A stretch of 64,000 nucleotides of DNA, from contig JBBEAY010000017.1 of the NCBI GenBank assembly GCA_040882605.1, forward strand, positions 27,933 through 91,932, in the 5' to 3' direction. The notes beneath the pieces were generated by a model. That model saw only the letters and a list, made by a program, of their open reading frames with translations, did not search any database and was not told the DNA's origin. Position 1 is the first letter of the stretch. Each line of letters begins with the position of its first letter. Source of the DNA: Actinomycetota bacterium. GTDB taxonomy: Bacteria > Actinomycetota > UBA4738 > HRBIN12. Made by a program: the position numbers and the translations under genes. Positions 30,057 through 55,546 of the stretch are shown in pieces.

Positions 30057-30057
30057 G

Positions 30058-33134: not shown

Positions 33135-33214
33135 CAACCGAGGCTTTCACGACGATCGATGGGGGGCGGCCCGGCGGGTCGCCCCCATCGTTCCCGAAGG
33201 ACGGCATCTCTCTC

Positions 33215-35128: not shown

Positions 35129-35182
35129 GTCTCGTCAGAGTATCGGCTCTTCGTTCGAGTTCCTATAGTTCAAGAGAATGGA

Positions 35183-35199
35183 TTATCATATAGTGATAA
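35183..35199. promoter_or_regulatory. Perfect 17-bp palindrome TTATCA-N5-TGATAA in an AT-rich leader; coordinates approximate
   Basis: ttatcatatagtgataa lies in the 158-bp low-GC gap (35129-35287) upstream of the hypothetical gene on the - strand and downstream of the IclR gene. Confidence 0.45.
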
Positions 35200-35287
35200 G
35201 GAGTTGGAGACGGCAGAAGATAGACCGAGAGGGTGACCGAGGCGTCCTCGAGGGGTGAGAGAGTGCCCTCCCCTTCAGTGGGAACGA

Positions 35288-36064
35288 TCAGGGGGTGACT
35301 GCGTCGAGCTCTGCCGTCAGCGATCGCGCGGCGCGATGCAGCGCACCCGTGGCTCGATCCCGCCACGCTGAGCCGCACCTGGCGTACGGGCCCCACAGGG
35401 CAAGGGCGCCGACGATGCCGTCGCCGCGGAACACGGGCACCGCGATCGAGACAGAACCGTCGATGAGCTCGCCCTCACTGAACGCGATGCCGCTTTCCCT
35501 GATCTCATCGAGCCCCTTGCGCAGCGGCGTTTCGGACGGGGTCGTGGGAGTGATCGCTTCCAGCCCCTGAGCGATGACCTCCTCGACGACCTCGGGTGGC
35601 GCGAACGACAGCAGCACTCTGGAGCCCGCTCCCGCGTGCAGGGGATAGGTCCCCCCCGGTTCCAGAGCGACCCGGATGCCGTCGCGGGATTCGTGTTGAT
35701 GGAGGCACATGGCCGTCAGGCCCACTCGCCGCATCACCACCGCTGTCTCGCCCTGGCTCTCGACGAGCATGCTGAGAACGGGTTCCGAGAGGCGGATCAA
35801 CAGATCGCTCGTCACGTGTGAGCCCGAGCCGATGACGAGCTTCGGGCCGAGCCGGTACCGACCGTCGTGCCGGTCGACGAAGCCGAACTCGGTCAGCGTT
35901 CGCAGGTAGCGGTACGCCGTCGACTGGGGCATGTCGAGCAACATCGCGAGATCGTCCGCCCTGATCGCCCCGCGGTCGGCGATGACGAGCAGCAGCCGGA
36001 GGCCACGAGCGAACGACGTATCCTCCGCCGCTTCCTCGGGCGGATGATCGCGAGCCGTGGACAT
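35288..36064 (-). CDS. IclR family transcriptional regulator
   Basis: N-terminal wHTH (LRLLLVIADRGAIRADDLAMLLDMPQSTAYRYLRTLTEFGFV) and a C-terminal IclR effector domain. Start placed at Met57 (MSTARDH). Confidence 0.82.
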   Translation of the reverse strand: MSTARDHPPEEAAEDTSFARGLRLLLVIADRGAIRADDLAMLLDMPQSTAYRYLRTLTEFGFVDRHDGRYRLGPKLVIGSGSHVTSDLLIRLSEPVLSMLVESQGETAVVMRRVGLTAMCLHQHESRDGIRVALEPGGTYPLHAGAGSRVLLSFAPPEVVEEVIAQGLEAITPTTPSETPLRKGLDEIRESGIAFSEGELIDGSVSIAVPVFRGDGIVGALALWGPYARCGSAWRDRATGALHRAARSLTAELDAVTP

Positions 36065-36212
36065 GCCCACATTCTCTCCGACCGCGCGAGTCCCGGCCAC
36101 CGGATCGGGCCGTGGCCGGAGCGATCCTCGTTTCCGTGGGTTGCCGATATCGCAACGCGCCCGTTGTTCCTGCAACAGAGCCTGCGTACCGTTCCTTCGT
36201 ACGGCCACCGCG

Positions 36213-36236
36213 ATGGCCATGACGATGGCCATGACG
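36213..36236. promoter_or_regulatory. Tandem 12-bp direct repeat, each unit carrying the palindrome ATGGCCAT (candidate IclR operator); coordinates approximate
   Basis: gatggccatgac gatggccatgac lies in the 194-bp gap between the divergent IclR and dimethylglycine oxidase genes. Confidence 0.4.
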
Positions 36237-36258
36237 AGGAAGCGACGGGGATCGAAGC

Positions 36259-38772
36259 ATGCGCGATCGGGCCCAGACGGTGATCATCGGCGCCGGCATC
36301 GTCGGCAGCTCCGCCGCCTTCCATCTGACCGAGCTCGGTGTGACCGATGTGCTCGTGCTCGACCAGGGTCCGTTGTTCGAGACGGGCGGCTCGACCAGCC
36401 ATGCGCCCGGCATCATCTTCCAGACGAATGGGTCGCGCACGATGTGCCGCATCGCGCAGGACTCGGTGGCGCTGTACGACTCCCTCGACCTCGACGGTGA
36501 GCGATGTTGGTACGGCGCAGGAAGCCTCGAGGTCACGACGACCACCGAGCGCATGCAGGAGCTGAAGCGCCGCCAGGGATTCGCACGTTCCTACGGCATC
36601 GAGGGCACGGAGCTGCTGACACCGGCCGAGGCGGCCGCGTGCTCGCCGTTGCTCGACCCTTCGACCATCCTCGGCGCGTATTGGGTGCCGAGCGACGGGG
36701 CTGCGAAAGGCGTGAAGGTCGTAGAGGCGCTCGCCCGCAAGGCCCAGGCAGTGGGCGTCGAGTTCGAGGGCGGGGTGGCGGTCACCGGCTTCGACATCCG
36801 CGACGGACGCGTGCACGGCGTGGAGACCGACCGGGGAAGGGTGGAGTGCGAGCGGGTGCTGCTGTGCGCCGGGATCTGGGGGCCGACGGTGGGCGCGCTT
36901 GCCGGCGTGCCGATCCCGCTCGTGGCGGTGCAGCACCAGCTCGTGTGGACAGACCCGATCCCCGAGCTGTCGGGACTCGACGGCGACGTCTGGCTGCGAC
37001 AGCCCGTCGTGCGCCACCAGGACATGTCGCTGTACTTCCGCCAGCGAGACGACCACTTCGGCGTCGGCAACTACCGGCACGAGCCGATCGTCACGCCCCA
37101 GTCGGCGATCCGCGCGACGGCCGAGAAGCCGGCCAAGAAGCCAGCCAAGAAGCCGGGAAGCGCCATGCAACCGTCGCTCATGCCTTTCACGCCCGACGAC
37201 TTCGACCTCTGCGAGGCAGAAACCGCGCGTATGTTCCCGGCGCTTGCGGGGCGCATGCGGCCGAGCGATCCCGCACGCACCCTGAACGGCATGTTCTCTT
37301 TCACGTCCGATGCCGGGTCGATCGTCGGTGAGAGCGCGGCTGTCCGCGGGTTCTGGGTCTGCGAGGCGGTGTGGGTAACCCACGCCGGCGGCATGGCACG
37401 CCAGGCCGTCGAATGGATGGTTGACGGCGCACCGAGCTACGACCTTGCCGAAGCCGACGCGAATCGCTTCTACCCGTTCCAGACGTCGGCGCCCTACGTC
37501 CTCGAACGCGGGAAGCAGCAGTACCGCGAGGTCTACGACATCATCCATCCACTGCAGCAGCCGGCGAAGCCACGGGGGCTGAAGCTCACGCCGTTCTTCG
37601 AGCGCCATCGCGAGCTGGGCGCCGAGTTCTTCCAGGGGGCGGGGTGGGAGCGGCCTCAGTGGTTCGCCGCCAACCGCGAGCTCGTGAGTGGCGTGACCCA
37701 CGAGTGGGCTCGTCGAACCGGGTGGGCCGCGCGCGGATGGTCACCAGAAGTCGGCGCCGAGCATCTGGCAACCCGCGATCGCGCGGCGCTGTTCGACATC
37801 ACCCCGTTCGCGAAGTTCGACGTGACGGGCCCCGACGCGCTCGCCTACCTCGAGCGGGTGTTCGCGAACCGCATCGATCGCCCCGTGGGCTCGATCGTGT
37901 ACACCGCCGCGCTGACCCAACGCGGCGGCATGAGGCTCGATCTCACCGTGACTCGGAAGGACGAGAACCGCTTCCGTGTGGTGACGGGTGGTGGCTCGGG
38001 GCACCACGACGAGGCGTTCCTGCGCCGGCAGATCCGCGACGGGGAACGGGTGCAGATCAACGTGCGCACGGGGTCGCTGTTCGCGCTCGGGCTCTGGGGC
38101 CCGAAGGCGCGAGATGTGCTGCAGGCCGTCACCGACATCGACGTCTCGAACGACGCGTTCCCGTACATGACCGCGCGGTACCTAAGCATCGGCGAGGTTA
38201 CCCCCGTGTGGGCACAGCGCATCAGCTACGCCGGCGAGCTCGGCTGGGAGCTGTACGGGCAGATCGCCATGGGCCAGCGCGCCTGGGACGTGCTGTGGGA
38301 AGCCGGCCGCGAGCACGGCCTGATCGCGGCGGGCGCCGGTGCGTTCGATTCGCTTCGGCTCGAGAAGGGCTACCGCCTCTGGGCCCAGGACATCGACACC
38401 GAGCATGACCCGCTCGCTGCGGGTTTGGGCTTCGCGGTGCGCTGGGACAAGGAGTTCACGGGCAAGCAGGCCCTGGAGGCGATCCGCGAACGAGGCGGCC
38501 CGTCGTCGTGCCTCTCGTGCATGACGCTCGACGACGACCAGGCGGTCGTCATGGGCAAGGAACCGGTGTGGCACGACGGCCGAGTGGTTTCGTACGTGAC
38601 GAGCGCGAACTACGGCTACTCGATCGGACGCGGCATCGTGTACGGCTACTTGCCGCCCGAGCTGGCGCACGAGGGCACGGCGGTCGAGGTCGAGTACTTC
38701 GGCGGTCGGTTCGCGGCCACGGTGACGAACGATCCGCTCTGGGACCCAAAGGGCGAGCGCCAGAAGACCTGA
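36259..38772 (+). CDS. Dimethylglycine oxidase-like bifunctional enzyme (N-terminal FAD oxidase plus C-terminal GcvT-like folate-binding domain)
   Basis: 837 aa. The N-terminus is VIIGAGIVGSSAAFHL...HAPG (FAD). The C-terminal half has an aminomethyltransferase-like fold (YTAALTQRGGMRLDLTV...GYRLWAQDID). It has the size and architecture of Arthrobacter DMGO and of the sarcosine/dimethylglycine dehydrogenase family. Confidence 0.82.
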   Translation: MRDRAQTVIIGAGIVGSSAAFHLTELGVTDVLVLDQGPLFETGGSTSHAPGIIFQTNGSRTMCRIAQDSVALYDSLDLDGERCWYGAGSLEVTTTTERMQELKRRQGFARSYGIEGTELLTPAEAAACSPLLDPSTILGAYWVPSDGAAKGVKVVEALARKAQAVGVEFEGGVAVTGFDIRDGRVHGVETDRGRVECERVLLCAGIWGPTVGALAGVPIPLVAVQHQLVWTDPIPELSGLDGDVWLRQPVVRHQDMSLYFRQRDDHFGVGNYRHEPIVTPQSAIRATAEKPAKKPAKKPGSAMQPSLMPFTPDDFDLCEAETARMFPALAGRMRPSDPARTLNGMFSFTSDAGSIVGESAAVRGFWVCEAVWVTHAGGMARQAVEWMVDGAPSYDLAEADANRFYPFQTSAPYVLERGKQQYREVYDIIHPLQQPAKPRGLKLTPFFERHRELGAEFFQGAGWERPQWFAANRELVSGVTHEWARRTGWAARGWSPEVGAEHLATRDRAALFDITPFAKFDVTGPDALAYLERVFANRIDRPVGSIVYTAALTQRGGMRLDLTVTRKDENRFRVVTGGGSGHHDEAFLRRQIRDGERVQINVRTGSLFALGLWGPKARDVLQAVTDIDVSNDAFPYMTARYLSIGEVTPVWAQRISYAGELGWELYGQIAMGQRAWDVLWEAGREHGLIAAGAGAFDSLRLEKGYRLWAQDIDTEHDPLAAGLGFAVRWDKEFTGKQALEAIRERGGPSSCLSCMTLDDDQAVVMGKEPVWHDGRVVSYVTSANYGYSIGRGIVYGYLPPELAHEGTAVEVEYFGGRFAATVTNDPLWDPKGERQKT

Positions 38773-38823
38773 AATGCCAGAAGATCTGGACAGATCTGAA
38801 CAGAAGGTGTGGGGGGAGGCGAC

Positions 38824-39522
38824 ATGGCCGACGAAGAAGAGCTCGATCTCACCACGCTTCCCGACGACGAGCTCGTGAAGCAGATGCACGACGATCTCTA
38901 CGACGGGCTCGCCGACGAGATCTTCGAGGGCACCAACATCCTGTTGGAACGCGGGTGGGGCGCCGACAAGGTGCTGAACGATGCGCTCGTCGAGGGCATG
39001 CGCATCGTGGGCATCGACTTCCGCGACGGCATCTTGTTCGTGCCCGAGGTGTTGCTCGCGGCCAACGCGATGAAGGCGGGCATGGCGATCCTGCGCCCGC
39101 TGCTCGCTGAGACCGGCGCCGAGCGCATGGGCACCGTGGTGATCGGCACCGTGAAGGGCGACATCCACGACATCGGCAAGAACCTCGTCGCGATGATGCT
39201 CGAGGGCGCCGGCTTCGACGTGATCGACCTCGGCATCAACAACCCGGTCGAGAAGTACTTGGCCGCGCTCGAGGAGCATCAGCCCGAGATCCTCGGAATG
39301 AGCGCGCTGCTCACGACCACGATGCCCTACATGAAGGTCGTGATCGACGAGCTCGAGGCCAAGGGGCTCCGTGACAAGTACATCGTGCTGGTCGGCGGTG
39401 CGCCGCTGAACGAGGAGTTCGGCAAGGCGGTCGGGGCCGACGCCTACTGCCGTGATGCCGCGGTCGCCACCGAGACCGCGCAGGCGTTGGTGCTGGCCAA
39501 GCGCGCTGCGGCGGCGTCGTGA
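38824..39522 (+). CDS. Corrinoid (cobalamin-binding) protein of a methyltransferase system (MtgC/MtbC-like)
   Basis: N-terminal helical cap followed by a B12-binding Rossmann domain with the DxHxxG motif (GTVKGDIHDIGKNLV) and GMSALLTTT. Start placed at MADEEEL after GGGGGGAGG. Confidence 0.82.
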   Translation: MADEEELDLTTLPDDELVKQMHDDLYDGLADEIFEGTNILLERGWGADKVLNDALVEGMRIVGIDFRDGILFVPEVLLAANAMKAGMAILRPLLAETGAERMGTVVIGTVKGDIHDIGKNLVAMMLEGAGFDVIDLGINNPVEKYLAALEEHQPEILGMSALLTTTMPYMKVVIDELEAKGLRDKYIVLVGGAPLNEEFGKAVGADAYCRDAAVATETAQALVLAKRAAAAS

Positions 39523-39543
39523 TGCTCCAGGAAGGTGCCGACC

Positions 39544-39873
39544 ATGGCTGAGCTGACGGTGATCAGGTGGCGGGACGTCCCGATGCAAGTGCTCGCGCGC
39601 GGCGCGGGAGGCGAGAGCGCGCGGGCGCTGCTTCCAGATCGGTTCCAGGAAGCGGTCGACGCCGCAGCCATGGTCGCCGGCCTGATCGGGTCCGATGACT
39701 ACACGGAGCAGATGCGCATGGACTCCCGGGAGTGCGGTGACGACTTGCAGCACGAGGTCGACACCGAGACCGTGACGATCCTCTCGGAGTGGGATGAGCA
39801 GGTGCTGCGCGAGACGATCCGCTCGGGCGGCGTCAGGGGCGGCGACCCGATCGCAGGCGGCGGCGGGCGGTAG
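39544..39873 (+). CDS. Small conserved hypothetical protein between the corrinoid protein and the pterin-binding methyltransferase
   Basis: About 110 aa, acidic, with a Gly-rich tail. It is spaced tightly on both sides (about 20 nt and 4 nt), so it is probably co-transcribed. No motif recognised. Confidence 0.5.
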   Translation: MAELTVIRWRDVPMQVLARGAGGESARALLPDRFQEAVDAAAMVAGLIGSDDYTEQMRMDSRECGDDLQHEVDTETVTILSEWDEQVLRETIRSGGVRGGDPIAGGGGR

Positions 39874-39877
39874 ATCT

Positions 39878-40861
39878 ATGGCTGACACCGTCGTGAGCTC
39901 GGCGACCCGCGAGGTCGTGATCGGCACGGGCCGTCCGTTCGTGATCATCGGTGAGCGCATCAACCCCACTGGGCGCAAGAAGCTCGCCGAGGAGATGAAG
40001 GCCGGTGACTTCACGACCGTGATCGCCGACACGCAGGCCCAAGTTGCCGCCGGGGCGCACATGCTCGACGTGAACGCCGGCATCCCGCTCGCCGACGAGC
40101 CGACGATCCTCGCCGAGACGGTGAAGCTCGTGCAGTCGCTCACCGACGTGCCGCTCTCGATCGATTCCTCGATCGTCGCCGCGTTGGAGGCCGGCCTCGC
40201 CGTGTATCAGGGCAAGCCACTCGTGAACTCCGTGACTGGCGAAGACGATCGCATCGAGACCGTGCTGCCGCTCGTCGCGAAGCACGGCGCGGCGGTCGTC
40301 GCGATCACCAACGACGAGACCGGCATCAGCGAGGACCCCGACGTGCGGTTCGCGGTGGCCGAGAAGATCGTGCGCGCGGCCGCCGACCACGGTATCGCCC
40401 CGCACGACATCGTCGTCGATCCGCTCGTGATGCCCGTGGGCGCCATGGGCACGGCCGGCCGGCAGGTCTTCGCCCTCGTGCGGCGACTGCACGACGAGCT
40501 CGGTGTCAACACGACGTGCGGCGCCTCCAACGTCTCGTTCGGGTTGCCGAACCGCAACGGGCTGAACGGCGCTTTCCTCGCGATGGCGATCGCCAACGGC
40601 ATGACGAGCGCGATCACCAGTCCGCTGCACGAGGAGGTGCGACAGGCCGTGATGGCCGCCGACGTGCTGATGGGCGCCGACGCGCACGCGGCCTCCTGGA
40701 TCCGACGCTACGGCGAGGGGCGGAGCCAGGGCGACGCCGCCACGGGGGGCAGGCGCGGAGGCCGCGCCGGGCGTCGGACGAGCGTCGAGCCGAGCGAGGG
40801 CGCAGCCTCGCCGGCCGAGCCGCCGGCCGAGCCGCCGGCCGAGGCGGCGCCAGAAACGTGA
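39878..40861 (+). CDS. Methyltetrahydrofolate:corrinoid methyltransferase (pterin-binding domain; MtgA/MetH-pterin-domain-like)
   Basis: A TIM-barrel pterin-binding pattern of the MetH/AcsE/MtrH type: PFVIIGERINPTGRKK, LDVNAG, SIDSS, NSV, CGASNVSFGLP. Confidence 0.75.
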   Translation: MADTVVSSATREVVIGTGRPFVIIGERINPTGRKKLAEEMKAGDFTTVIADTQAQVAAGAHMLDVNAGIPLADEPTILAETVKLVQSLTDVPLSIDSSIVAALEAGLAVYQGKPLVNSVTGEDDRIETVLPLVAKHGAAVVAITNDETGISEDPDVRFAVAEKIVRAAADHGIAPHDIVVDPLVMPVGAMGTAGRQVFALVRRLHDELGVNTTCGASNVSFGLPNRNGLNGAFLAMAIANGMTSAITSPLHEEVRQAVMAADVLMGADAHAASWIRRYGEGRSQGDAATGGRRGGRAGRRTSVEPSEGAASPAEPPAEPPAEAAPET

Positions 40862-42882
40862 CCGAAGCCGAAGGCTCGCTCGTCGTCTTCACGCCTTCCG
40901 GCAAGCGGGGCCGCGTCACCACGGACACCAACCTGCTCGAGGCCGCCCGCTCGCTCGGCGTCGACCTCGACTCGGTCTGCGGCGGGCGCGGCATCTGCGG
41001 CCGGTGTCAGATCGTCGTGGCCGAAGGCAAGTTCGCGAAGCACGCCATCACTTCGAGCGCCGATCACCTCACGCCGTTCAGCGAGCCGGAGACCCGCTTC
41101 CGCGAACGGAGCGGTCTCGCCGCCGACCGCCGGCTGGGTTGTCACGCCCGCGTGTGCGGTGACCTCGTGGTCGATGTGCCGCCCGAGAGCCAGCTGCATC
41201 GTCAGGTCATCCGCAAGGATGCCGACGCGCACCCGATCGAGGTCGACCCGGTGCTGCGACTGCATTACGTGGAAGTCCGCGAGCCCGATCTCGCCGATCC
41301 GAGCGGCGATCTACAGCGGGTCGCCGAGGCGCTCGAACGCGACTGGTCGCTCACGGGGCTCGCCGCCGACCCGCAAGTGCTCCCGTCTCTGCAGCGCACG
41401 CTGCGCACCGGCGACTGGAAGGTCACGGTCGCCGTGCACGACGGCGCCGCGATCACCGCGGTGTGGGCCGGCTTCCACGATTCGGCGCTCGGGGTGGCCT
41501 TCGACGTGGGGTCGACGACGGTGGCCGGGCACCTGTGCGACCTGCACACCGGCGAGGTGCTCGCGAGCGCCGGCGCGATGAATCCGCAGATCCGGTTCGG
41601 CGAGGACCTGATGAGCCGCGTCAGCTACGTGATGATGCATCCGGGTTCCGAGGCCGAGCTCACCGCTGCGATCCGAACTTGCGTGAACGTGCTCATCACC
41701 GATGTATGCGAGCAGGCCGGCGTCGAGCCGAACGATGTGCTCGAGCTCACCGTCGTCGGCAACCCGATCATGCACCACCTGTTCCTGGGACTCGATCCGA
41801 CCGAACTCGGCGGCGCGCCGTTCGCCCTCGTGACCGACGAGGCCGTGCATCGCACTGCCCGCGAGCTCGACCTGACCGCGACGAACGCCGGCGCGAGGGT
41901 CTACGTGCTTCCTTGCATCGCGGGGCACGTCGGTGCCGACACCGCCGGTGTGATCTTGAGCGAAGCACCGCATGAACAGGACACGGTGAACCTGATCGTC
42001 GATGTCGGCACGAACGCCGAGATCGTGCTCGGCAACCGCGACCGGCTGCTGGCTGCTTCCAGCCCGACGGGCCCGGCGTTCGAGGGCGCCCAGATCTCGT
42101 GCGGACAGCGCGCGGCGCCGGGTGCGATCGAGCGCGTGCGCATCGATCGGGACACGTTGGAGCCGAGGTTCCGGGTGATCGGCGACGAGAGATGGAGCGA
42201 CGAGCCGGACTTCGACGCGATGACGGTCACTGGGGTCGCGGGCAGCGGCATCATCGAGGCGATCGCGGAGCTGTTCCTGGCCGGCGTGATCACGGCCGAC
42301 GGGGTCATCGACGGCGCGCTCGCCTCCCGGAGCCCCCGTGTCGTCGCAGACGAGCGCACGTTCTCATACGTCTTGCACGAAGCGCCCGGCACTCCGAGGC
42401 TCGTGATCACCCAGAACGACGTTCGCCAGATCCAGCTCGCGAAAGGCGCCCTCTACGCGGGGTGTCGTCTCTTGATGGATGCCCTCGGCATCGAGACCGT
42501 CGACCGCATCAGGCTCGCCGGTGCATTCGGCGCGCACATCGACTCGGTGCACGCGATGGTGCTAGGGCTCGTGCCCGACTGCGATCCCAAGCACGTGACG
42601 AGCGCCGGGAACGCCGCCGGCACCGGCGCCCGGATCGCCCTGTTGAACCGAGCCGCTCGCGACGAGATCGAAGCGGTCGTGCGCCGCGTCGAGAAGCTCG
42701 AGACCGCCGTGGAGCCTCGGTTCCAAGAACACTTCGTGGGGGCGATGGGCATCCCTCACGCCACCGACGCGTTCCCGCGCCTCGCTAAGGTCGTGGATCT
42801 GCCGGCGCCACGCGCGCCAGAGGCCGGTGACCGTGTGCGACGCCGCCGGCGCACCACCCAACCCGAGAGGAGCAGCACATGA
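40858..42882 (+). CDS. Corrinoid reductive activase (RamA-like: 2Fe-2S ferredoxin domain plus ASKHA ATPase domain)
   Basis: GTG start overlaps the upstream stop (GTGA). The N-terminus carries a plant-type ferredoxin cluster, CGGRGICGRCQ ... C. The C-terminal roughly 550 aa match the ASKHA/DUF4445 family typical of RamA/RACE activases. Confidence 0.78.
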   Translation: MTEAEGSLVVFTPSGKRGRVTTDTNLLEAARSLGVDLDSVCGGRGICGRCQIVVAEGKFAKHAITSSADHLTPFSEPETRFRERSGLAADRRLGCHARVCGDLVVDVPPESQLHRQVIRKDADAHPIEVDPVLRLHYVEVREPDLADPSGDLQRVAEALERDWSLTGLAADPQVLPSLQRTLRTGDWKVTVAVHDGAAITAVWAGFHDSALGVAFDVGSTTVAGHLCDLHTGEVLASAGAMNPQIRFGEDLMSRVSYVMMHPGSEAELTAAIRTCVNVLITDVCEQAGVEPNDVLELTVVGNPIMHHLFLGLDPTELGGAPFALVTDEAVHRTARELDLTATNAGARVYVLPCIAGHVGADTAGVILSEAPHEQDTVNLIVDVGTNAEIVLGNRDRLLAASSPTGPAFEGAQISCGQRAAPGAIERVRIDRDTLEPRFRVIGDERWSDEPDFDAMTVTGVAGSGIIEAIAELFLAGVITADGVIDGALASRSPRVVADERTFSYVLHEAPGTPRLVITQNDVRQIQLAKGALYAGCRLLMDALGIETVDRIRLAGAFGAHIDSVHAMVLGLVPDCDPKHVTSAGNAAGTGARIALLNRAARDEIEAVVRRVEKLETAVEPRFQEHFVGAMGIPHATDAFPRLAKVVDLPAPRAPEAGDRVRRRRRTTQPERSST

Positions 42883-44438
42883 GCGACGAGTCAGCCACGC
42901 AGGATGCGCCCCGGCGACGTCGCACCGGTGGCCGGGAAGGACGTGCCGCCGCGCGCCTCGCCACCGTTGCCGAGAAGGTTCCGTTCATCACACGGGAGCT
43001 GACCCCGTTCGAGGTGTTGAGCGAGGAAGGTCTTGCGACGATCGAGCACAACGCCGACACGATCCTCGAACAGGTCGGCATCGACTTCCGCGAGGCACCT
43101 GATGCCCTGGAGCTGCTGAAGGGAGCGGGGTGCGACATCGATGGCGAGCGTGCGCGGTTCCCCCGCGGACTGGCGCGCCAGCTCGTGCAGGCCACCGCGC
43201 CGCGTGAGTTCGACCAGGTTGCAAGGAACCCCGCCAACAACGTGCACATCGGGGGCGCCGCCACCGTGCTCGCGCCGGCGTACGGTTCGCCGTTCGTGAG
43301 GGACCTCGACGGAGGACGGCGCTACGGCACGATCGAAGACTTCCGCAACTTCGTGAAGCTCGCGTACTCGACCCCCTACCTGCACCATTCGGGTGGCACG
43401 GTGTGCGAGCCGGTCGACCTGCCGGTCAACAAGCGGCATTACGACATGGTCTACGCGCACATGCGCTACTCCGACAAGGCATTCATGGGTTCGGTCACGC
43501 ATCCGCAGCGCGCGCAGGACACGGTCGAGATGGCGCGCATCCTGTTCGGCGCCGACGCGCTCGAGGCGCAGCCGCACGTGCTGAGCCTGATCAACGCGAA
43601 CTCGCCGCTCGTGTGGGACACGATCATGCTCGGCGCCGCGAAGGCCTATGCCGAGGCGAACCAGGCGGTGATCATGACGCCGTTCATCTTGGCGGGGGCG
43701 ATGAGTCCCGCGACGGCGGCGGGCGCGGCGACCCAGACGCTCGCTGAGGCGCTTGCGGGCATGGCGTACGTGCAGTTGGTGCGCCCCGGCGCTCCTGTCG
43801 TCTTCGGCTCGTTCGCCTCGTCGATGTCGATGCAGTCGGGAGCGCCGACGTTCGGAACGCCGGAGCCGGCCCTCGTGCTCTACGCGCTCGCTGCGTGCGC
43901 ACGGCGGCTCGGTGTGCCGTTCCGAAGCGGGGGCTCGCTCACCGCGTCGAAGGTCGCCGACGCGCAGGCGGCGTACGAGTCGGCGAACACGCTGCAGCCG
44001 ACCATGCTCGCCGGCGTGAACTTCGTGCTGCACGCCGCGGGCTGGCTCGAGGGCGGTCTCGCGATGGGCTACGAGAAGTTCGTGCTCGACCTCGACCAAT
44101 GCGGACAGATGCACGCGTTCGCCAAAGGCATGGACCTCTCGCCCAACGGCCAGGCGCTCGACGCGATCATCGAGAACGGTCCCGGTCAGCACTTCCTCGG
44201 CACAGCGCACACGCTCGCGAACTTCGAGACCGCCTTCTACCGATCCGAGATCGCCGACAACAACTCGTTCGAACAATGGGAGATCGAAGGCTCGCTCGAC
44301 GCAGCGATGCGCGCCAACGCCGTGTGGAAGCGGATGCTCGCCGAGTACGAGACGCCGCGTATCGACGAGGCCAAGGACGAGGAGCTCCGAGAGTGGATCG
44401 AGAAGAAGAAGGCGAGCTTCCCGGACTCGAACGTCTGA
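42879..44438 (+). CDS. MttB-superfamily (trimethylamine methyltransferase family) substrate:corrinoid methyltransferase without pyrrolysine; candidate glycine betaine methyltransferase (MtgB-like)
   Basis: 519-aa uninterrupted ORF with no in-frame amber codon. It has the length and TIM-barrel pattern of the COG5598 MttB family. The context (betaine importer, dimethylglycine oxidase, corrinoid protein, MtgA, RamA) points to a quaternary-amine substrate. Confidence 0.72.
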   Translation: MSDESATQDAPRRRRTGGREGRAAARLATVAEKVPFITRELTPFEVLSEEGLATIEHNADTILEQVGIDFREAPDALELLKGAGCDIDGERARFPRGLARQLVQATAPREFDQVARNPANNVHIGGAATVLAPAYGSPFVRDLDGGRRYGTIEDFRNFVKLAYSTPYLHHSGGTVCEPVDLPVNKRHYDMVYAHMRYSDKAFMGSVTHPQRAQDTVEMARILFGADALEAQPHVLSLINANSPLVWDTIMLGAAKAYAEANQAVIMTPFILAGAMSPATAAGAATQTLAEALAGMAYVQLVRPGAPVVFGSFASSMSMQSGAPTFGTPEPALVLYALAACARRLGVPFRSGGSLTASKVADAQAAYESANTLQPTMLAGVNFVLHAAGWLEGGLAMGYEKFVLDLDQCGQMHAFAKGMDLSPNGQALDAIIENGPGQHFLGTAHTLANFETAFYRSEIADNNSFEQWEIEGSLDAAMRANAVWKRMLAEYETPRIDEAKDEELREWIEKKKASFPDSNV

Positions 44439-44520
44439 CCCGGGGTCCGGCTTCGGTTCACGATCAGGCAGGCCGATACGCCATCATGATGCGCGGCCGC
44501 GGCAAGGAAGGCGGAACGAG

Positions 44521-45405
44521 GTGGCGTTGAGGATCGGCAAACGGCGAACGTCGGTGCTCCCCGAGGAACAGCGCGTCGCGTTGCGCGCGCTCCTTGAGCG
44601 GCCGAAGTTCGAGCTGATCCCGTTGAAGAACGCACGGGAGGCGGCAGAAGCGCTGCCGGTGGGCGCGATGGTCACGGTCACGGCCTCGCCGAGCCACGGC
44701 ATCGAGTCGACTATCGAGCTCGCTGAGCAGATGGTTGCGGCCGGTCACGATGCGGTGCCGCACCTATCCGCGCACATGATCCGCGACCGGGCGCACCTGG
44801 GCGAGCTGCTCGATCGGTGCCGGGGGGCCGGCTTGCGTGAAGCGTTCGTGGTGGGAGGTGATGCCAAGGAACCGGGAGAGTTCCACGACGGACTCACCCT
44901 GCTTCGTGCGATGCACGAGCTCGGCCACCCGTTCGAGACGGTCGGAGCGCCAGGCTACCCCGAGGGTCACCCCGGCATCAGCCGTGAGCGTCTGCTCGAG
45001 GTGCTGCTCGACAAGCAGGCCTACGTGTCGTACATGGCCACGCAGATGTGCTTCGATCCCGATGCGATCGTCGGCTGGATAGCCGAGATGCGCCGTCAGG
45101 GCGTGACGCTCGCCGTGCACCTGGGAACGCCCGGGGTCGCCGACATGGCGAAGCTCATCACTATCAGCGCGCGCATCGGCATCGCCGACAGCGCCCGCTA
45201 CCTCAAGAAGAACAAGCGCATGGTTGGACACTTGCTCACCCCCGGGAAGTTCGGGCCAGACGCTCTACTCGAAGGAGTGGCGCCGGCGCTCGCCGACCCG
45301 AGCGCGAAGATCGAAGCGGTGCACCTGTTCACGTTCAACCAGGTGAGTGCGACCGTCGAGTGGCAGCAGCGGATGCTCGCCGCGCTCGACGAAGCGTCGG
45401 AATGA
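44521..45405 (+). CDS. metF: 5,10-methylenetetrahydrofolate reductase (MetF family)
   Basis: GTG start after AAGGAAGG. MetF TIM-barrel pattern (FELIPL...VTASP...HLSAHMIRD...FVVGGD...GAPGYPEGHP...HLFTFN). Confidence 0.8.
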   Translation: MALRIGKRRTSVLPEEQRVALRALLERPKFELIPLKNAREAAEALPVGAMVTVTASPSHGIESTIELAEQMVAAGHDAVPHLSAHMIRDRAHLGELLDRCRGAGLREAFVVGGDAKEPGEFHDGLTLLRAMHELGHPFETVGAPGYPEGHPGISRERLLEVLLDKQAYVSYMATQMCFDPDAIVGWIAEMRRQGVTLAVHLGTPGVADMAKLITISARIGIADSARYLKKNKRMVGHLLTPGKFGPDALLEGVAPALADPSAKIEAVHLFTFNQVSATVEWQQRMLAALDEASE

Positions 45406-45833
45406 GTCGGGCCTTGGCGTCTCCGAGGGGTTCGGTGTCTGGCGGACATCTGCGTGGCCCATTTTCGAGTTTGGGCGTGACGGGCACACCTTCTCCATGG
45501 CGGAGATCCCGTTGGTGCTCGGGCTCTGTTTCGTGGCGCCGGCCAGGGTCGCCGCCGCGCAGCTCGCCGCCGCCGCGCTGATCGTGATCGGCGGCAGCAC
45601 TCCTTGGGGCTTGACCCAGACGCGGCCGTGCAGAGGTCACTGCCCTGGAACCTCGGGTCACGTTCTCGGCGTGTGCACGCCTATCCTCCATGGCAGACTG
45701 CGCTTCCGGTCAACGTGAACGGGGGTCATTCCGTGGAGCAGCGATACGACATCGTCGTGATGGGGGACGGGCACGGTCTCTCGTCGCGCCGCGTGTTAGG
45801 CGATCTGAACAAGGGACCTCACTAGCCGTGGCG

Positions 45834-46082
45834 ATGCACGTTCCATGCGGCCACTGCGGCCGGCGGCCGTTCACGGAGTTCTCGTTCGGCGGTGAGTGGC
45901 GAGAGATCGACGCCCCCGACGCCGAGTCGGACTTCGTACGCGTCTACCTGCCCGAGAACCCGGAAGGCCCGCAGCGCGAACGATGGTTCCACGCCATGGG
46001 TTGCCGCACCTGGACGACCGTGTTGCGCGACACGCGCACGAACCAGATCGAGCGCGACACGCGCACGAACGAGATCGGCTGA
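45834..46082 (+). CDS. soxD: Sarcosine oxidase delta subunit
   Basis: MHVPCGHCGRRPFTEFSFGGE matches the Cys-pair N-terminus of SoxD and is paralogous to 53613-53900. The 3' end contains an in-frame 27-bp tandem duplication (RDTRTNQIE/RDTRTNEIG). A GTG start 6 nt upstream is also possible. Confidence 0.8.
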   Translation: MHVPCGHCGRRPFTEFSFGGEWREIDAPDAESDFVRVYLPENPEGPQRERWFHAMGCRTWTTVLRDTRTNQIERDTRTNEIG

Positions 46083-46086
46083 CCAG

Positions 46087-48681
46087 ATGGGCTCGCTCGA
46101 GTTCGAGGGTCGGGGGGTGCCGTTCAAGTCCGGCGACACGGTCGCGTCGGCGCTGTACCGAGACGGATTGCGCACGTTCTCGCGCTCGCTGAAGTACCAC
46201 CGGCGCCGTGGCCTCTACTGCGGCACCGGCGACTGCCCGAATTGCCTGATGACGGTCGACGGGTTGCCCGCGATGCGCACCTGCACCACGCGATGCGACG
46301 AGGGTATGCGCGTCGAGCGTGCAGGCGGATGGCCGAACGCCGACCTCGATCTGTTGCACGTCACCGACTCGCTGCACCGTGTGATGCCGGTTGGCTTCTA
46401 CTACAAGACCTTTATCAAGCCCCGGTTCGCGTGGTCGGTCGCTGAGCGCGTGATCCGGCGTGCGACCGGGCTCGGAAGGCTGCCCCCAACCACGGCCGCG
46501 GCGAGAGAGATCGTCCGTCACGAGCACGTCGACGTTGTGGTGATCGGGGCGGGCATCGCTGGCTTGGAAGCTGCGCGCGACGCTGCGGCGGGCGGTTCGG
46601 TGCTCGTGTGCGACGAGGGCCGGATCGGCCACGCCGTCGCGCCCGGGCCGACGCTCGATCGGCTCCAGGCGCTCGAAGCCGAAGTACGCGCACTCGATGC
46701 GGTGACCGTGCTCGAGACCCATACCGCGCTCGGTGTGTACGAGGGCTTGCACGTGCCCCTCGCCGGGGACGGAGATCTCGTGCACGTGCATCCGTCGCGG
46801 GTGATCGTGGCGACCGGAGCCACCGAAGCGCACGCTGTGTTCCCCGGCAACGACCTGCCGGGAGTGATGCTCGGGCGGGCGGCGGCCGCGCTCGCGGGAG
46901 TGCACGGCGTGCGCCCCGGCAGGCGGGCCGTCGTTGCCGTGCGCACCGAGGAGGGCCTGCAACACCTCCAGACTGTGCTCGACTCCGGGGTCGAAGTGAT
47001 AGCCACGGCCGTATCAGGGGCGATGGCGGACCGGCTTCCCGACGCGGGCTTGGGAGAGGTCGTGGTCGACGGCGAGGTGCATGAGGCGCGCGGCGGCTCA
47101 TCGCTGCGCTCGGTCGTGCTGCGCCGAGACGGCCGGGCCAAGCGGTTCGACTGCGACCTGCTCGTGCTCTCCCTCGGCCTCTCGCCGCGCGACGGGCTCG
47201 CGCGCATGGCCCTGCCCGGCGAGGCCGTGACCGTTGTGGGCGATGCGGCGGCTGAGCCGCCGGCCGAGGCGTGCGGCCATGACGGCATCGTGTGCTTGTG
47301 CGAGGACGTCTCGACGCACGACCTCGAACAGGCCTGGGACGAGGGCTTCCGCAACTCCGAGATCTTGAAGCGATACACGACGACGACGATGGGCCCGTGC
47401 CAGGGCGCGATGTGCGGTCGGGCGCTGTCGTGTTTCGCGGTGTCGCGCGGCGACGTCGGGCATCGAGCCGACGCCCCGCAGGCTCCTCGCACAACCGCCA
47501 GGCCGCCGACGAGACCGGTCACGCTTGAGTCGCTCGCCGCCGGGGTGCACGAGATCGTCGACAAGCGGACGTCACTGCACGAGTTGCACGTGGCCGCCGG
47601 TGCGAAGCTCGATCGTTCGGGGGGATGGCTGCGACCGTTCAACTACGGCGACTGGCGCGAGGAATACCTGGCCGTGCGCGAGCGAGTGAGCCTCATGGAC
47701 GTGGGCACGCTCGGCAAATTCACGCTGGGCGGCGCCGACGCCGACGCGAGTGAGCTCATCGATCGTCTGTTCCCGTGCCGCGTCGCCGACCTCGCGCCGG
47801 GGCGCACGCGCTACGTGCTGAGCCTCGACGAGGCCGGCTACGTGATGGACGACGGACTCCTCGTCCGCGTTGGTGAGCACGAGTGGTACCTCACCTCGAC
47901 GTCGGGCGGGGCCGGCCGCACCGACGCCCGTCTGCGCAACTTCATCGACCGCTTCGACCTTGACGTGCACGTGCTCGACCGCACGGCGCAGTGGGGCGCG
48001 ATCAACGTCGCGGGCCCGTACTCCCGCGACTTGCTCGAGCGGCTCACCGACGACCCGATCGACGCCGAGGCCATGCCCTTCCCGGGGTTCACCGACGCGA
48101 CGGTGGCCGGCGTGGCGTGCCGCGTGATCCGCACGGGGTTCGTGGGGGAGCTCGCGTTCGAGCTGCACCACCCGCGCTCGCGCGGGCCGGAGCTCTGGCA
48201 GGCGCTCGTCGAAGCCGGCCGCGAGTGGCACCTCGTGCCGCACGGCCTTGACGCGCTCGAGCTGCTGCGGCTCGAGAAGGGGCACGTCTATCTCGGGCAG
48301 GACACGATGCCCGACGACACACCGGCGAAGCTTGACATGTCGTGGGCGGTCGACATGAGCAAGCCATGGTTCGTCGGCAAGATGGCCCTCGAACGCATGG
48401 CCACGCTTGGGTTGGCGCGTCGACACGTGGGCCTCGAGCTCACCGGCGGGCCGGCTGACACCGCCGAGCTGCGGGGCGAGCCGTTGCTGGTCGGCGGCGA
48501 CGTCGTCGGTCGGGTTACATCGGCAGAGCACTCGATCGCGCTCGGCCGTGCGATCGGGCTCGGATGGATCCGCTCGGTCGACGACGGCTTCCCCGAAGAG
48601 CTCGTGACCGGATCGGGGGCGGTCGCAACCGTCGTGCCGACACCCTTCTACGATCCGGGAGGAGGCAGGATGCGTGGCTGA
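46087..48681 (+). CDS. soxA: Sarcosine oxidase alpha subunit
   Basis: 864 aa from Met66 of the track ORF. N-terminal Cys-rich domain (CGTGDCPNC), NAD/FAD Rossmann motifs (VVVIGAGIAGLEAA), and a C-terminal GcvT-like folate-binding domain. Confidence 0.85.
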   Translation: MGSLEFEGRGVPFKSGDTVASALYRDGLRTFSRSLKYHRRRGLYCGTGDCPNCLMTVDGLPAMRTCTTRCDEGMRVERAGGWPNADLDLLHVTDSLHRVMPVGFYYKTFIKPRFAWSVAERVIRRATGLGRLPPTTAAAREIVRHEHVDVVVIGAGIAGLEAARDAAAGGSVLVCDEGRIGHAVAPGPTLDRLQALEAEVRALDAVTVLETHTALGVYEGLHVPLAGDGDLVHVHPSRVIVATGATEAHAVFPGNDLPGVMLGRAAAALAGVHGVRPGRRAVVAVRTEEGLQHLQTVLDSGVEVIATAVSGAMADRLPDAGLGEVVVDGEVHEARGGSSLRSVVLRRDGRAKRFDCDLLVLSLGLSPRDGLARMALPGEAVTVVGDAAAEPPAEACGHDGIVCLCEDVSTHDLEQAWDEGFRNSEILKRYTTTTMGPCQGAMCGRALSCFAVSRGDVGHRADAPQAPRTTARPPTRPVTLESLAAGVHEIVDKRTSLHELHVAAGAKLDRSGGWLRPFNYGDWREEYLAVRERVSLMDVGTLGKFTLGGADADASELIDRLFPCRVADLAPGRTRYVLSLDEAGYVMDDGLLVRVGEHEWYLTSTSGGAGRTDARLRNFIDRFDLDVHVLDRTAQWGAINVAGPYSRDLLERLTDDPIDAEAMPFPGFTDATVAGVACRVIRTGFVGELAFELHHPRSRGPELWQALVEAGREWHLVPHGLDALELLRLEKGHVYLGQDTMPDDTPAKLDMSWAVDMSKPWFVGKMALERMATLGLARRHVGLELTGGPADTAELRGEPLLVGGDVVGRVTSAEHSIALGRAIGLGWIRSVDDGFPEELVTGSGAVATVVPTPFYDPGGGRMRG

Positions 48682-49108
48682 GCTGCGCCCGACCTCGTCG
48701 CCCGTCGTCGTCGTCGTGCTCGCGTCGAGCGAGGCATGCGATCGAATCGTCGCGCCCGAAGGCGCGATCGCCATGCGCATCGCGCCCCGCGAGATGCTCC
48801 TCGTCGGTTCGGCCGACGCCGGCGCCGAAGTCTTGCGCGGCGCCCTCGACGAGCCGAGCGCTATCGTCGACGACGTTACCGACGGGTGGGCCATGTTCCA
48901 GCTCACCGGTGACGACGCTCGAGAGGCTTTCGCGCGCGTGTGCGAGCTCGAGCTTCCCGATGGCGGATGGGTGCAGGGCGAGGTTGCTCGCGCGGGCGCC
49001 AAGGTGATCGTGGAACCAGGCGGTCTCACGATCCTCGTTCCGGCGATGCTCGGTGCTCACGTCGAGGAGCGGATCCGTGCCGACGCCGCGGAGCTGCTCG
49101 CGCCATGA
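48674..49108 (+). CDS. soxG: Sarcosine oxidase gamma subunit
   Basis: 144 aa. Its position between soxA and soxB and its size fit SoxG. GTG start overlaps the soxA end. Confidence 0.65.
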   Translation: MAELRPTSSPVVVVVLASSEACDRIVAPEGAIAMRIAPREMLLVGSADAGAEVLRGALDEPSAIVDDVTDGWAMFQLTGDDAREAFARVCELELPDGGWVQGEVARAGAKVIVEPGGLTILVPAMLGAHVEERIRADAAELLAP

Positions 49109-53900: not shown

Positions 53901-53904
53901 GCGG

Positions 53905-54230: not shown

Positions 54231-54261
54231 GGTCGACGCTCGGATGCCCACGCCCGCATCC

Positions 54262-55461: not shown

Positions 55462-55481
55462 CGCGGCCAAGGGTAGGGGTT

Positions 55482-55510: not shown

Positions 55511-55546
55511 CGCACACGGTTGCGCACGAGATCGGAGCGTTGCGGC

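Follow-up and report, generated by a model that had tools for sequence, protein, structure and literature searches.

The window, that is, the whole stretch of DNA that was analysed (64,000 nucleotides from an uncultured soil actinomycete), contains a cassette of six genes on the + strand at positions 38824-45405, and every gene that an earlier note had named there was found where it had been placed. In Pfam, NCBIfam and PDB sequence searches all six products had a family match, that of the last one to Pfam being weak, although above threshold. The first gene, with a GGAGG 8 nt 5' of its ATG, encodes a corrinoid (cobalamin-binding) protein of the aerobic MtgC type (38824-39522; PF02607, 57 bits; PF02310, 97 bits). 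It is followed by genes for a small conserved protein of 109 aa belonging to PF13769 ('Virulence_fact'; 39544-39873; 50 bits), a pterin-binding methyl-corrinoid:tetrahydrofolate methyltransferase of the MtgD/AcsE/MetH-folate-domain type (39878-40861; PF00809, 103 bits), a RACo-type ATP-dependent reductive activase of corrinoid proteins combining a 2Fe-2S ferredoxin with an ASKHA domain (40858-42882; PF00111, PF17650, PF17651, PF14574), a non-pyrrolysine methyltransferase of the MttB superfamily, probably a glycine betaine:corrinoid methyltransferase of the aerobic MtgB type (42879-44438), and a divergent methylenetetrahydrofolate reductase (MTHFR) homologue that probably oxidises CH3-THF (44521-45405; PF02219, 37 bits over a cut-off of 24). 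The genes had been described as translationally coupled, which is true of the methyltransferase/activase junction (a 4-nt overlap, GTGA, in which the GTG start of the activase overlaps the upstream TGA) and of the activase/MttB junction (a 4-nt overlap, ATGA), but not of the others, where gaps of 21 nt (corrinoid/PF13769), 4 nt (PF13769/methyltransferase) and 82 nt (MttB/MetF) are found.

The DxHxxG motif reported for the corrinoid protein is present as GDIHDIGKN, and the protein is 70-94% identical to its counterparts in cassettes from other phyla, whereas its score against the model of the anaerobe MtgC (NF047996, 208.7 bits) lies below the cut-off of 370. The PF13769 gene, the sixth of the cassette, was unnamed in the earlier note; it is found in most of the cassettes compared, any role of its product in the system being putative, and no fold match was found for this protein. 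The pterin-binding protein exceeds the NF005719 cut-off of 259 with 352.5 bits, and its top PDB matches are MetH (1Q7M, 136 bits) and AcsE (1F6Y, 131 bits), the structure of Desulfitobacterium hafniense MtgA not being among its PDB sequence matches. The name MtgA is imprecise for this protein, which is similar to AcsE and to the folate domain of MetH and corresponds to MtgD of PMC12478193. In the activase, the CGGRGICGRCQ 2Fe-2S motif and the ASKHA domain were both recovered; its domains are Fer2 and the RACo linker, middle and ASKHA domains (302 bits), and its top PDB match is RACo itself (3ZYY, 319 bits, full length). The label RamA does not hold, as the protein is of the RACo type with an N-terminal 2Fe-2S domain and not of the methanogen RamA type (TIGR04270, 119 bits against a cut-off of 500).

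The earlier note had proposed comparing the 519-aa methyltransferase with the PF06253 profile, which it matches over positions 1-500 of 500 with 746.5 bits; as had been claimed, no in-frame amber codon occurs in the gene, its sole stop being the terminal TGA. Its closest solved relative is PDB 4YYC (705.7 bits), deposited as a putative trimethylamine methyltransferase. The D. hafniense MtgB/MtgC/MtgA system (PDB 2QNE, 9YCE; PMC13080624, PMC7154762) follows the same reaction logic in an anaerobic glycine betaine:THF methyl transfer, and shares with the window a TIM-barrel methyltransferase of the MttB superfamily (2QNE, 404 bits, 44% identity) and a DxHxxG corrinoid protein, although its THF methyltransferase is of a different type and it serves anaerobic respiration or acetogenesis, in contrast to the oxidative catabolism with O2-dependent oxidases encoded here. 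In D. hafniense MtgB, whose Km for glycine betaine is 0.88 mM, four residues binding this substrate have been validated experimentally (PMC13080624). Three of them, Y97, R312 and H348, are conserved as Y135, R349 and H385, whereas the position of F356, the cation-pi residue of MtgB, is occupied by G393 (WLEGG versus ILQYF), with a Gly in all 82 orthologues and an invariant Trp close by. Since the F356L change raises the Km of MtgB about 800-fold (PMC13080624), this clade must either hold the ammonium group in another way or have a different substrate. The latter option, in which the same machinery would act on proline betaine, carnitine, gamma-butyrobetaine or a histidine-betaine-type compound linked to an adjacent MIO-less lyase, and the oxidases for dimethylglycine and sarcosine would work on a substrate supplied separately, is considered unlikely. 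In its favour, besides the loss of F356, R312 and H348 are common to enzymes acting on other acidic betaines and it is the aromatic pair that sets MtgB apart (PMC13080624); moreover, an aerobe may have as many as seven MttB paralogues whose substrates have yet to be assigned (PMC12478193). The MtpB, MtcB, MtyB and MthB enzymes of Eubacterium limosum, a strict anaerobe, are also non-pyrrolysine members of the superfamily that act on other substrates (proline betaine, carnitine, gamma-butyrobetaine, phosphocholine) and feed one common corrinoid protein and THF methyltransferase, and the acid-group-binding Arg and His are largely common to them and the window protein. On the other hand, Y135 is kept across the orthologues while this position is Thr or Gly in the paralogues that the same loci encode, which suggests that the orthologous clade keeps one specificity.

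The surroundings of the cassette also bear on the substrate. An importer of the OpuA/ProU type lies upstream on the + strand, composed of an OpuAA-like ATPase as its first gene (28896-30056; PF00005, 119.7 bits), a fused OpuAB-like double permease (30058-32121; PF00528 in two stretches, 146.8 bits) and an OpuAC-type glycine betaine/quaternary amine binding protein (32058-33134, start approximate; PF04069, 159.9 bits, full profile). This transporter (28896-33134) had not been mentioned before. Judged by its binding protein, its substrate would be a betaine; OpuAC-type proteins take several betaines. A lyase, closest among solved proteins to ergothionase, is encoded between the transporter and an IclR-family regulator. 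The regulator (35288-36232, - strand; PF09339 and PF01614) is divergent from the following run of genes, an arrangement kept in locus L001, and may control it. That run begins with a dimethylglycine oxidase of 837 aa with DAO, FAO_M and GCV_T domains (36259-38772, + strand), which matches the Arthrobacter globiformis N,N-dimethylglycine oxidase (1PJ5), its best solved relative, over the full length with 736 bits, and the mammalian dimethylglycine dehydrogenase with 415 bits; only 51 nt separate it from the corrinoid gene on the same strand. Downstream, a first sarcosine-oxidase-like cluster, soxD-A-G-B (45690-50316, + strand, starts approximate), comprises soxD (45690-46082), soxA (about 46090-48681), a soxG-like gene (48674-49108) and soxB (48940-50316), with matches to DAO (215 bits), PF04267 (63.7 bits), the SoxA domains and TIGR01372 (509.9 bits) and a weak one to GCV_T. 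A second cluster, on the - strand (50328-55851), has the canonical soxB-D-A-G order: soxB (54262-55851, start uncertain), soxD (53613-53951), soxA (50887-53616) and soxG (50328-50909), with PF01266, PF04267 (129.6 bits), the SoxA domain set and PF04268. The cassette thus lies, as described, between a dimethylglycine oxidase and two sarcosine oxidases, all four Sox subunits being present twice. These enzymes resemble the lower pathway of aerobic Actinobacteria (Arthrobacter dimethylglycine oxidase and the corynebacterial-type heterotetrameric sarcosine oxidase), although here they are physically joined to a B12-dependent first step, and it is the genes for O2-dependent oxidases that suggest an aerobic lifestyle for the uncultured host. 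Beyond them, a second IclR regulator (55508-56338, + strand; PF09339, PF01614) and a PLP-dependent enzyme of the serine/threonine dehydratase family (56278-57384, + strand; PF00291, 253 bits) are kept beside the sox genes in loci L004 and L006; by analogy with the induction of SdaA in Ruegeria pomeroyi (PMC12478193), the PLP enzyme may convert serine to pyruvate. The MMPL gene noted for the genome is at 7573-10194, next to a luciferase-like gene (10201-11163). For the choice of methyl donor, the ergothionase-like lyase and the acceptance of several betaines by OpuAC-type binding proteins (PMC13080624) speak for a compound other than glycine betaine, but the gene directly upstream of the cassette on the same strand is for the oxidation of dimethylglycine, the specific product of glycine betaine demethylation.

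Systems of this kind had been regarded as known from strict anaerobes, a premise that is now outdated. The aerobic R. pomeroyi demethylates glycine betaine with MtgB, MtgC and MtgD, as shown by proteomic data and by knocking out mtgC and mtgD, and RamA, DUF1638 and MetF2 are induced alongside (PMC12478193, PNAS 2025). In Phaeobacter inhibens, deletion of mtgB1 supports the same route (bioRxiv 10.64898/2025.12.19.695462). Marine Alpha-, Gamma- and Deltaproteobacteria often have their mtg genes together with those that handle dimethylglycine and sarcosine, and Actinomycetota account for 5% of ocean mtgC reads (PMC12478193). This aerobic MtgBCD(E) demethylase/split methionine synthase of R. pomeroyi, P. 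inhibens and Sinorhizobium meliloti (PMC12478193; bioRxiv 10.64898/2025.12.19.695462; PMC5764234) is the closest known system, sharing with the window a non-pyrrolysine MttB, a separate corrinoid protein, a MetH/AcsE-like methyltransferase, a 2Fe-2S/ASKHA activase, an extra MTHFR and downstream flavoenzyme steps for dimethylglycine and sarcosine. In S. meliloti, the cluster described as mtgBCDE and assigned to glycine betaine (PMC12478193), an assignment that argues against another donor, has proteins 82% (corrinoid), 65% (MttB), 63% (pterin methyltransferase) and 57% (activase) identical to those of the window, and its locus also holds an MTHFR, a PF13769 protein, DUF1638 and bmt. Orthology with the genes tested genetically in R. 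pomeroyi and P. inhibens would be drawn through this S. meliloti link. Unlike those proteobacterial systems, the actinomycete one has all its parts and the oxidases in one co-directional run (they are scattered in R. pomeroyi), and a 294-aa S6MTHFR-like MTHFR where proteobacterial cassettes have a pair, a 363-aa MTHFR and a Cys-rich 'MTHFR C-terminal domain'. The cassette is also found in MAGs of Actinomycetes, Thermoleophilia, Chloroflexota, Acidobacteriota and Proteobacteria; in 32 of the 48 loci with full flanks, which come from several phyla, the MttB orthologue has the cassette core beside it, and the layout of dimethylglycine oxidase, cassette and sox genes is kept in related MAGs (L001-L004). 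However, a close dimethylglycine oxidase neighbour is found in only 3/48 of the full-flank loci and sox genes in 9/48, so that outside the sublineage of the window the gene neighbourhood argues only weakly for glycine betaine.

A further difference from the proteobacterial hosts is that DUF1638 was not found anywhere in the 64-kb window and is missing from the cassette of its sublineage, which counts against an MtgBCD-type role given the induction of this protein in R. pomeroyi and the fitness data of P. inhibens, where it was needed to grow when no methionine was added. Nor did any of the window's scanned ORFs match PF02574, the homocysteine methyltransferase family (MtgE/Bmt); tblastn placed a close bmt homologue no more than 10 kb away in just 2/80 loci, and gave weaker matches in one more, L025. 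This bears on the idea of a split methionine synthase, in which the corrinoid protein, pterin methyltransferase, activase and MTHFR would be mainly anabolic, the MTHFR making CH3-THF whose methyl group would reach, via the corrinoid protein, a homocysteine methyltransferase encoded at another locus, with MttB as an accessory methyl input. The dual use of MtgC and MtgD in R. pomeroyi and P. inhibens, where their loss leads to methionine auxotrophy, and the extreme conservation of the corrinoid protein, as expected of a housekeeping part, speak for it, but the scarcity of bmt and the embedding of the cassette among catabolic oxidases and a betaine importer, together with the properties of the nearest solved MTHFR relative, make it highly improbable; besides, dual use would leave the catabolic role in place. 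That relative is the type 4 S6MTHFR of Sphingobium lignivorans SYK-6 (7XG9, 121.8 bits, versus only 28.5 bits for Thermus MetF), which oxidises CH3-THF and does not use NADH (PMC11868366). Like S6MTHFR, the window enzyme is encoded beside a THF-dependent demethylase yielding CH3-THF, and the gene neighbours of type 4 enzymes include corrinoid-dependent CmuAB systems (PMC11868366). Nevertheless, when its PDB alignment is read against the type 4 residues (PMC11868366), only P49 and F269 are kept, the remainder being changed (L48 to S, R78 to M, F215 to I, C219 to I, P268 to T and GGL to NQV), so that membership of type 4 is not established and the direction of the reaction is uncertain.

Taken together, the genes present, their domain architecture and conserved motifs, the synteny and the homology to the S. 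meliloti mtgBCDE cluster make it probable (about 0.75) that the cassette is an actinomycete copy of the aerobic-type cobalamin-dependent glycine betaine demethylase (MtgBCD type), set in one catabolic run. The OpuAC-type protein upstream, the dimethylglycine oxidase, the two sox clusters and the layout kept in L001-L004 favour glycine betaine as the substrate. The OpuA-type system would import the betaine, and the MttB-family protein would bind it, holding the carboxylate by R349 and H385 and the trimethylammonium group by Y135 and probably W389. One N-methyl would then be presented to the Co(I) of the corrinoid protein, giving dimethylglycine and methyl-Co(III), and moved to tetrahydrofolate by the pterin-binding methyltransferase, while the MTHFR homologue would oxidise the resulting CH3-THF to CH2-THF. 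The activase, using ATP and a low-potential electron, may reduce cobalt that has been adventitiously oxidised to Co(II) back to Co(I), a reactivation that should matter most in an oxygen-exposed cell, as that of the host presumably is. Finally, the dimethylglycine oxidase and the heterotetrameric sarcosine oxidases would take off the last two methyls as CH2-THF, leaving glycine. The functional reading of the earlier note, in which betaine methyl passes to THF by B12, through MetF and then flavin oxidases, thus stands as the best explanation of the gene anatomy, but its proposal of an undescribed pathway variant is unsupported, because MtgB, MtgC and MtgD were shown in aerobes in 2025 and the route with MetF2 and RamA already has genetic and proteomic support there. 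The pathway type is established by the genetic and proteomic work on R. pomeroyi and the mtgB1 deletion in P. inhibens, and the cassette would represent a new host for B12-dependent glycine betaine demethylation, not a new pathway.

The cassette occupies positions 38824-45405 of the forward strand, and all the components listed for it in the earlier note have been recovered where that note had placed them by means of Pfam and NCBIfam scans. These are a corrinoid protein with a B12-binding cap and domain (38824-39522; PF02607, PF02310), a pterin-binding methyltransferase (39878-40861; PF00809, NF005719), an activase made up of a 2Fe-2S ferredoxin domain and RACo linker, middle and ASKHA domains (40858-42882), an MttB-family protein of 519 aa (42879-44438; PF06253) and an MTHFR homologue of 294 aa (44521-45405; PF02219, 37 bits against a cut-off of 24). 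The sixth gene, left unnamed in that note, encodes a PF13769 ('Virulence_fact') protein of 109 aa (39544-39873, forward strand as the others), whose start was placed at the ATG at 39544 by homologue alignment. Four junctions within the cassette are tight: the genes overlap by 4 nt at two of them and are 4 and 21 nt apart at the other two. The MttB and MTHFR genes are separated by 82 nt. The cassette lies within an unbroken series of high-GC3 ORFs that extends from 36.2 to 50.3 kb on the forward strand, and the GC content is 0.64-0.72 throughout the window. The idea of a mobile island was considered and dropped; there is no GC step at the cluster, and the scanned ORFs contain no integrase or transposase domain. 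A consensus scan of positions 35000-46500 was uninformative, with no promoters and a single terminator-like site, which is less than the shuffle mean, and an Rfam scan at gathering threshold found no cobalamin or other riboswitch in the whole window.

The assignment of the 519-aa protein to the MttB family, as proposed earlier, is borne out by a match to PF06253 over the full profile (746.5 bits, E 1.1e-224, positions 1-500 of 500). Its gene has indeed no in-frame UAG (pyrrolysine) codon, the sole stop among its 520 codons being the terminal TGA, and with 241 bits the protein stays under the cut-off (525) of TIGR02369, the equivalog model for the Pyl type. Sequence matches in the PDB were only 4YYC (a putative trimethylamine methyltransferase), MtgB and Pyl-MttB, and no MtgB, MtcB or MtpB model matched in the NCBIfam scan; the relationships of the protein have been taken from pairwise identities and a neighbour-joining tree of the fetched loci plus 2QNE, the structure of Desulfitobacterium hafniense MtgB. 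In this anaerobe, the glycine betaine site of MtgB (Y97, F356, R312, and H348) has been defined with the help of mutagenesis and of a structure with bound ligand (Picking et al., JBC 2026, PMC13080624), and these residues were transferred to the window protein through a HMMER alignment. The carboxylate-binding R312 and H348 correspond to R349 and H385, which are invariant in the 87 sequences aligned (87/87). The cation-pi aromatic pair formed by Y97 and F356 is incomplete: the tyrosine is kept as Y135, and the position of F356 is taken by G393 (motif AAGWLEGGLAMGYE, the MtgB equivalent being TAGILQYFMAMSYE). The Y-R-H residues together with W389-x-x-G392-G393 are common to all 82 orthologues, whereas MtgB has I-x-x-Y-F; W389 is invariant in the clade of the window protein and, judging from the alignment, may provide the second aromatic face in place of F356. 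Since the MtgB motif fails at one of its four residues, the protein has been classed as resembling MtgB in its working (aerobic MtgB-type), short of a proven MtgB. Glycine betaine specifically is considered the probable substrate, and a different betaine an unlikely one. In four of the other loci (L036, L043, L061, and L067), second MttB copies, 40-59% identical to the window protein, adjoin the orthologous cassette. The first three of these paralogues keep the Arg, His and Trp and have Thr or Gly at the position of Tyr135; that of L067 keeps the Tyr, with Phe replacing Trp and Leu replacing Gly393. Their sequences suggest other methyl donors supplying the same corrinoid protein.

The corrinoid protein has the expected His ligand in GDIHDIGKN, a DxHxxG His-on motif located inside the PF02310 match. 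It scores under the cut-offs of both NCBIfam anaerobe-MtgC models, its identity across the cassette-bearing phyla is 70-94%, and it belongs to an aerobic MtgC lineage separate from both the MetH domain and the MtgC of anaerobes. The pterin-binding methyltransferase scores 352 bits, over the cut-off, with NF005719 ('methyltetrahydrofolate:corrinoid/iron-sulfur protein methyltransferase'), and is by its PDB matches of the MetH-folate-domain/AcsE type, not of the D. hafniense MtgA type. The activase has a plant-type 2Fe-2S domain at its N-terminus (CGGRGICGRC), matches RACo 3ZYY over its full length and scores under the cut-off of the methanogen RamA model; it is classified on this basis as a RACo-type protein with an Fe-S domain and an ASKHA ATPase domain. 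These components could in principle work as a split methionine synthase, but a chiefly anabolic role of this kind is judged very improbable, and it could coexist with a catabolic role, as in Ruegeria; no homocysteine methyltransferase (MtgE/Bmt) was found among the scanned ORFs or by tblastn of the window. [quoted passage not shown]

Systems of this type had been thought in the earlier note to be characterised in strict anaerobes only, a premise superseded by the aerobic systems of Ruegeria pomeroyi and Phaeobacter inhibens described in 2025. In R. pomeroyi, proteomics together with mtgC and mtgD knockouts have shown that MtgC (corrinoid protein) and MtgD (pterin methyltransferase) are needed for growth on glycine betaine (Mausz et al., PNAS 2025, PMC12478193). 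In this bacterium, two PF06253 proteins, RamA, DUF1638, cobalamin synthesis proteins, and an extra MetF2 are induced, and the first step is followed by the demethylation of dimethylglycine and then of sarcosine (PMC12478193). In many marine Alpha-, Gamma-, and Deltaproteobacteria, the mtg genes are co-located, even in operons, with those of the later demethylation steps; the cluster of Sinorhizobium meliloti has been called mtgBCDE, and Actinomycetota account for 5% of the ocean mtgC reads (PMC12478193). In P. inhibens, mtgB1 has been deleted, and the Rieske monooxygenase GbcAB takes over under cobalt limitation (2025 preprint, bioRxiv 10.64898/2025.12.19.695462). The window proteins are identical to those of the S. 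meliloti locus at 65% (MttB), 82% (corrinoid protein, compared with the cobalamin-binding protein of mtgBCDE), 63% (methyltransferase), and 57% (activase). Since this locus holds the most similar proteins, the window cluster is taken as a member of the described aerobic system, in a host that is new at the level of phylum and with its genes packed unusually closely; the link of the window MttB protein to that system runs through the S. meliloti cluster only. A separate pterin-binding MtgD and a RamA-like activase are both present, as in the aerobic MtgBCD(E) system (PMC12478193), whereas the DUF1638 partner is absent from the window. As the hybrid of a B12-dependent first step and oxidases afterwards has already been described in aerobes, the proposal of an undescribed pathway variant is not supported, while the functional interpretation that accompanied it (B12 methyl transfer, then oxidases) largely stands.

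An MTHFR homologue is present as a candidate for the CH3-THF oxidation assigned to the extra MetF2 of the aerobic system; it is of another type than the MTHFR encoded in the cassettes of S. meliloti and Gammaproteobacteria. Among solved structures it lies nearest to S6MTHFR (7XG9; 121.8 bits, Thermus MetF reaching 28.5 bits). S6MTHFR is an enzyme of 'type 4': it catalyses the oxidation of CH3-THF, is unable to use NADH, and has its gene beside those of THF-dependent demethylases (PMC11868366). This kinship would fit the oxidative role proposed for the homologue. The type 4 signature consists of L48-P49 and R78, F215 and C219 in helix alpha8, and a P268-F-G-G-L loop (PMC11868366), and P49 and F269 alone are kept in an alignment to 7XG9; as the signature is mostly not conserved, the direction of the reaction is a presumed one. 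The mycobacterial flavin-independent type was also considered for this protein and discarded, its best solved relative being instead the FAD-containing S6MTHFR.

Upstream of the cassette there are an OpuA/ProU-type ABC importer with an OpuAC binding protein (28896-33134, forward strand), an IclR regulator on the opposite strand, and a dimethylglycine oxidase of 837 aa (36259-38772, forward strand) that matches the Arthrobacter enzyme 1PJ5 over its full length (736 bits). Downstream there are two clusters of the heterotetrameric sarcosine oxidase type, one on the forward strand with the unusual order soxD-A-G-B (45690-50316) and another on the reverse strand with the canonical order soxB-D-A-G (50328-55851). 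Both sets are complete and convergent; their SoxA proteins have clearly diverged, so that the substrate of one set may be another N-methyl amino acid. Beyond the two clusters come a second gene for an IclR regulator and one for a PLP-dependent enzyme of the dehydratase family. With importer, dimethylglycine oxidase, cassette and sarcosine oxidases side by side, the locus reads as import followed by three successive N-demethylations of glycine betaine. In this scheme, glycine betaine would be demethylated to dimethylglycine in a B12-dependent manner with transfer of the methyl group to THF, the corrinoid would be reactivated reductively at the cost of ATP, and the MTHFR homologue would oxidise CH3-THF, the oxidase steps following thereafter. 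The probability of the whole scheme is put at roughly 75%.

Other genes of the window deserve mention. Between the betaine importer and the IclR regulator, a forward-strand gene (33131-34666) encodes a protein of the aromatic-amino-acid-lyase family (PF00221, 362 bits) without the MIO-forming Ala-Ser-Gly triad (GSIGQADLAP versus GSVGASGDLAP in histidine ammonia-lyase). Among solved structures, the MIO-less ergothionase 6S7J comes closest to this protein (183 bits), with histidine ammonia-lyases little behind, and the lyase is found at 81% identity in L001, the locus with the closest MttB relative. Its reaction could be the elimination of trimethylamine from ergothioneine or from a compound resembling a histidine betaine. 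Trimethylamine released by this lyase is unlikely as the MttB substrate, given that the MttB protein retains the carboxylate-binding Arg and His and contains no pyrrolysine. Just upstream of the importer (23679-27900, forward strand), genes for a flavin amine oxidase (PF01593), an enoyl-CoA hydratase and a protein resembling ADP-forming acyl-CoA synthetases (CoA_binding, Succ_CoA_lig, and ATP-grasp_5 domains) stand in a row, with one for an EamA transporter after them; they may form a further module for the catabolism of amines or acids. The MMPL transporter mentioned in the earlier note was also found (PF03176, 273 bits); it is followed by a luciferase-like monooxygenase (PF00296; both within 7573-11163, forward strand) and preceded by a TetR regulator. 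This agrees with what that note said of MMPL and with possible F420 enzymes.

At the level of the genome, the nearest relatives are MAGs of uncultured Actinomycetes from soil; in L001 the MttB protein is 94% identical and the layout of dimethylglycine oxidase, cassette and sarcosine oxidase genes is the same. Orthologues at 67-94% identity occur in Gaiellales/Thermoleophilia, Chloroflexota/Limnocylindrales, Acidobacteriota, and Gamma-, Beta-, and Alphaproteobacteria, and cultured carriers include Halomonas lysinitropha, Denitromonas iodatirespirans, Virgifigura deserti and, at the 65% already given, S. meliloti. The corrinoid protein, PF13769 protein, pterin methyltransferase, and activase accompany the MttB orthologue in 32 of the 48 loci with full 10-kb flanks. 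Two layouts can be distinguished. In Actinomycetes, Chloroflexota, and Acidobacteriota the order is mtgC-(DUF1638)-PF13769-methyltransferase-activase-mttB-metF, with a metF product of 294 aa; in Proteobacteria it is mtgC-DUF1638-PF13769-'MTHFR C-terminal domain'-MTHFR (363 aa)-methyltransferase-activase, with mttB divergent. DUF1638 (PF07796), tied to B12 reactivation by fitness data from P. inhibens, is likewise present in 32 of these 48 loci and sits in most cassettes between the corrinoid gene and PF13769 (L006, L009-L034, about 5.9-6.9 kb). Neither the 64-kb window nor its closest loci (L001-L005) gave a DUF1638 match in a tblastn search (E <1e-5); another part of the source genome could carry the gene.

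The PF13769 protein is strongly conserved and its predicted model is confident (pLDDT 89); no sequence or structural relative was found in the PDB, and a literature search for the accession gave no paper. It recurs in corrinoid methyltransferase cassettes of at least five phyla (the window, L006-L034, L036-L077, and L081), adjoins DUF1638 wherever the latter is present, and in Proteobacteria is encoded immediately upstream of the MTHFR genes. Speculatively, this placement suggests that the protein helps to maintain the cofactor or takes part in the oxidation of folate. Possible functions would be the coupling of the methyl-THF step to MTHFR, or the keeping or restoring of Co(I). It is proposed, quite tentatively, that corrinoid methyltransferase systems exposed to oxygen require the PF13769 protein as a subunit not recognised until now. 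If true, the actinomycete/Chloroflexota cassette could be a version of the aerobic glycine betaine demethylase with a distinct mechanism, marked by an aromatic cage in which Trp replaces Phe, by an oxidising MTHFR similar to S6MTHFR and, in the sublineage of the window, by the absence of DUF1638.

Two questions for the field arise from this locus: how the trimethylammonium group is bound in the aerobic clade, which lacks the Phe that the enzyme of the anaerobe cannot do without, and what the role of the widely co-occurring PF13769 protein is. A pathway gathered compactly in a single locus, with importer, three demethylation steps, folate oxidation, activase, and regulators, would be handy for heterologous reconstitution. 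More generally, the recently described B12-dependent aerobic demethylation of glycine betaine would reach beyond marine Proteobacteria and include soil Actinomycetes, Thermoleophilia, Chloroflexota, and Acidobacteriota, and the presence of the route in these groups would imply a demand for cobalamin in the turnover of osmolytes in soils.
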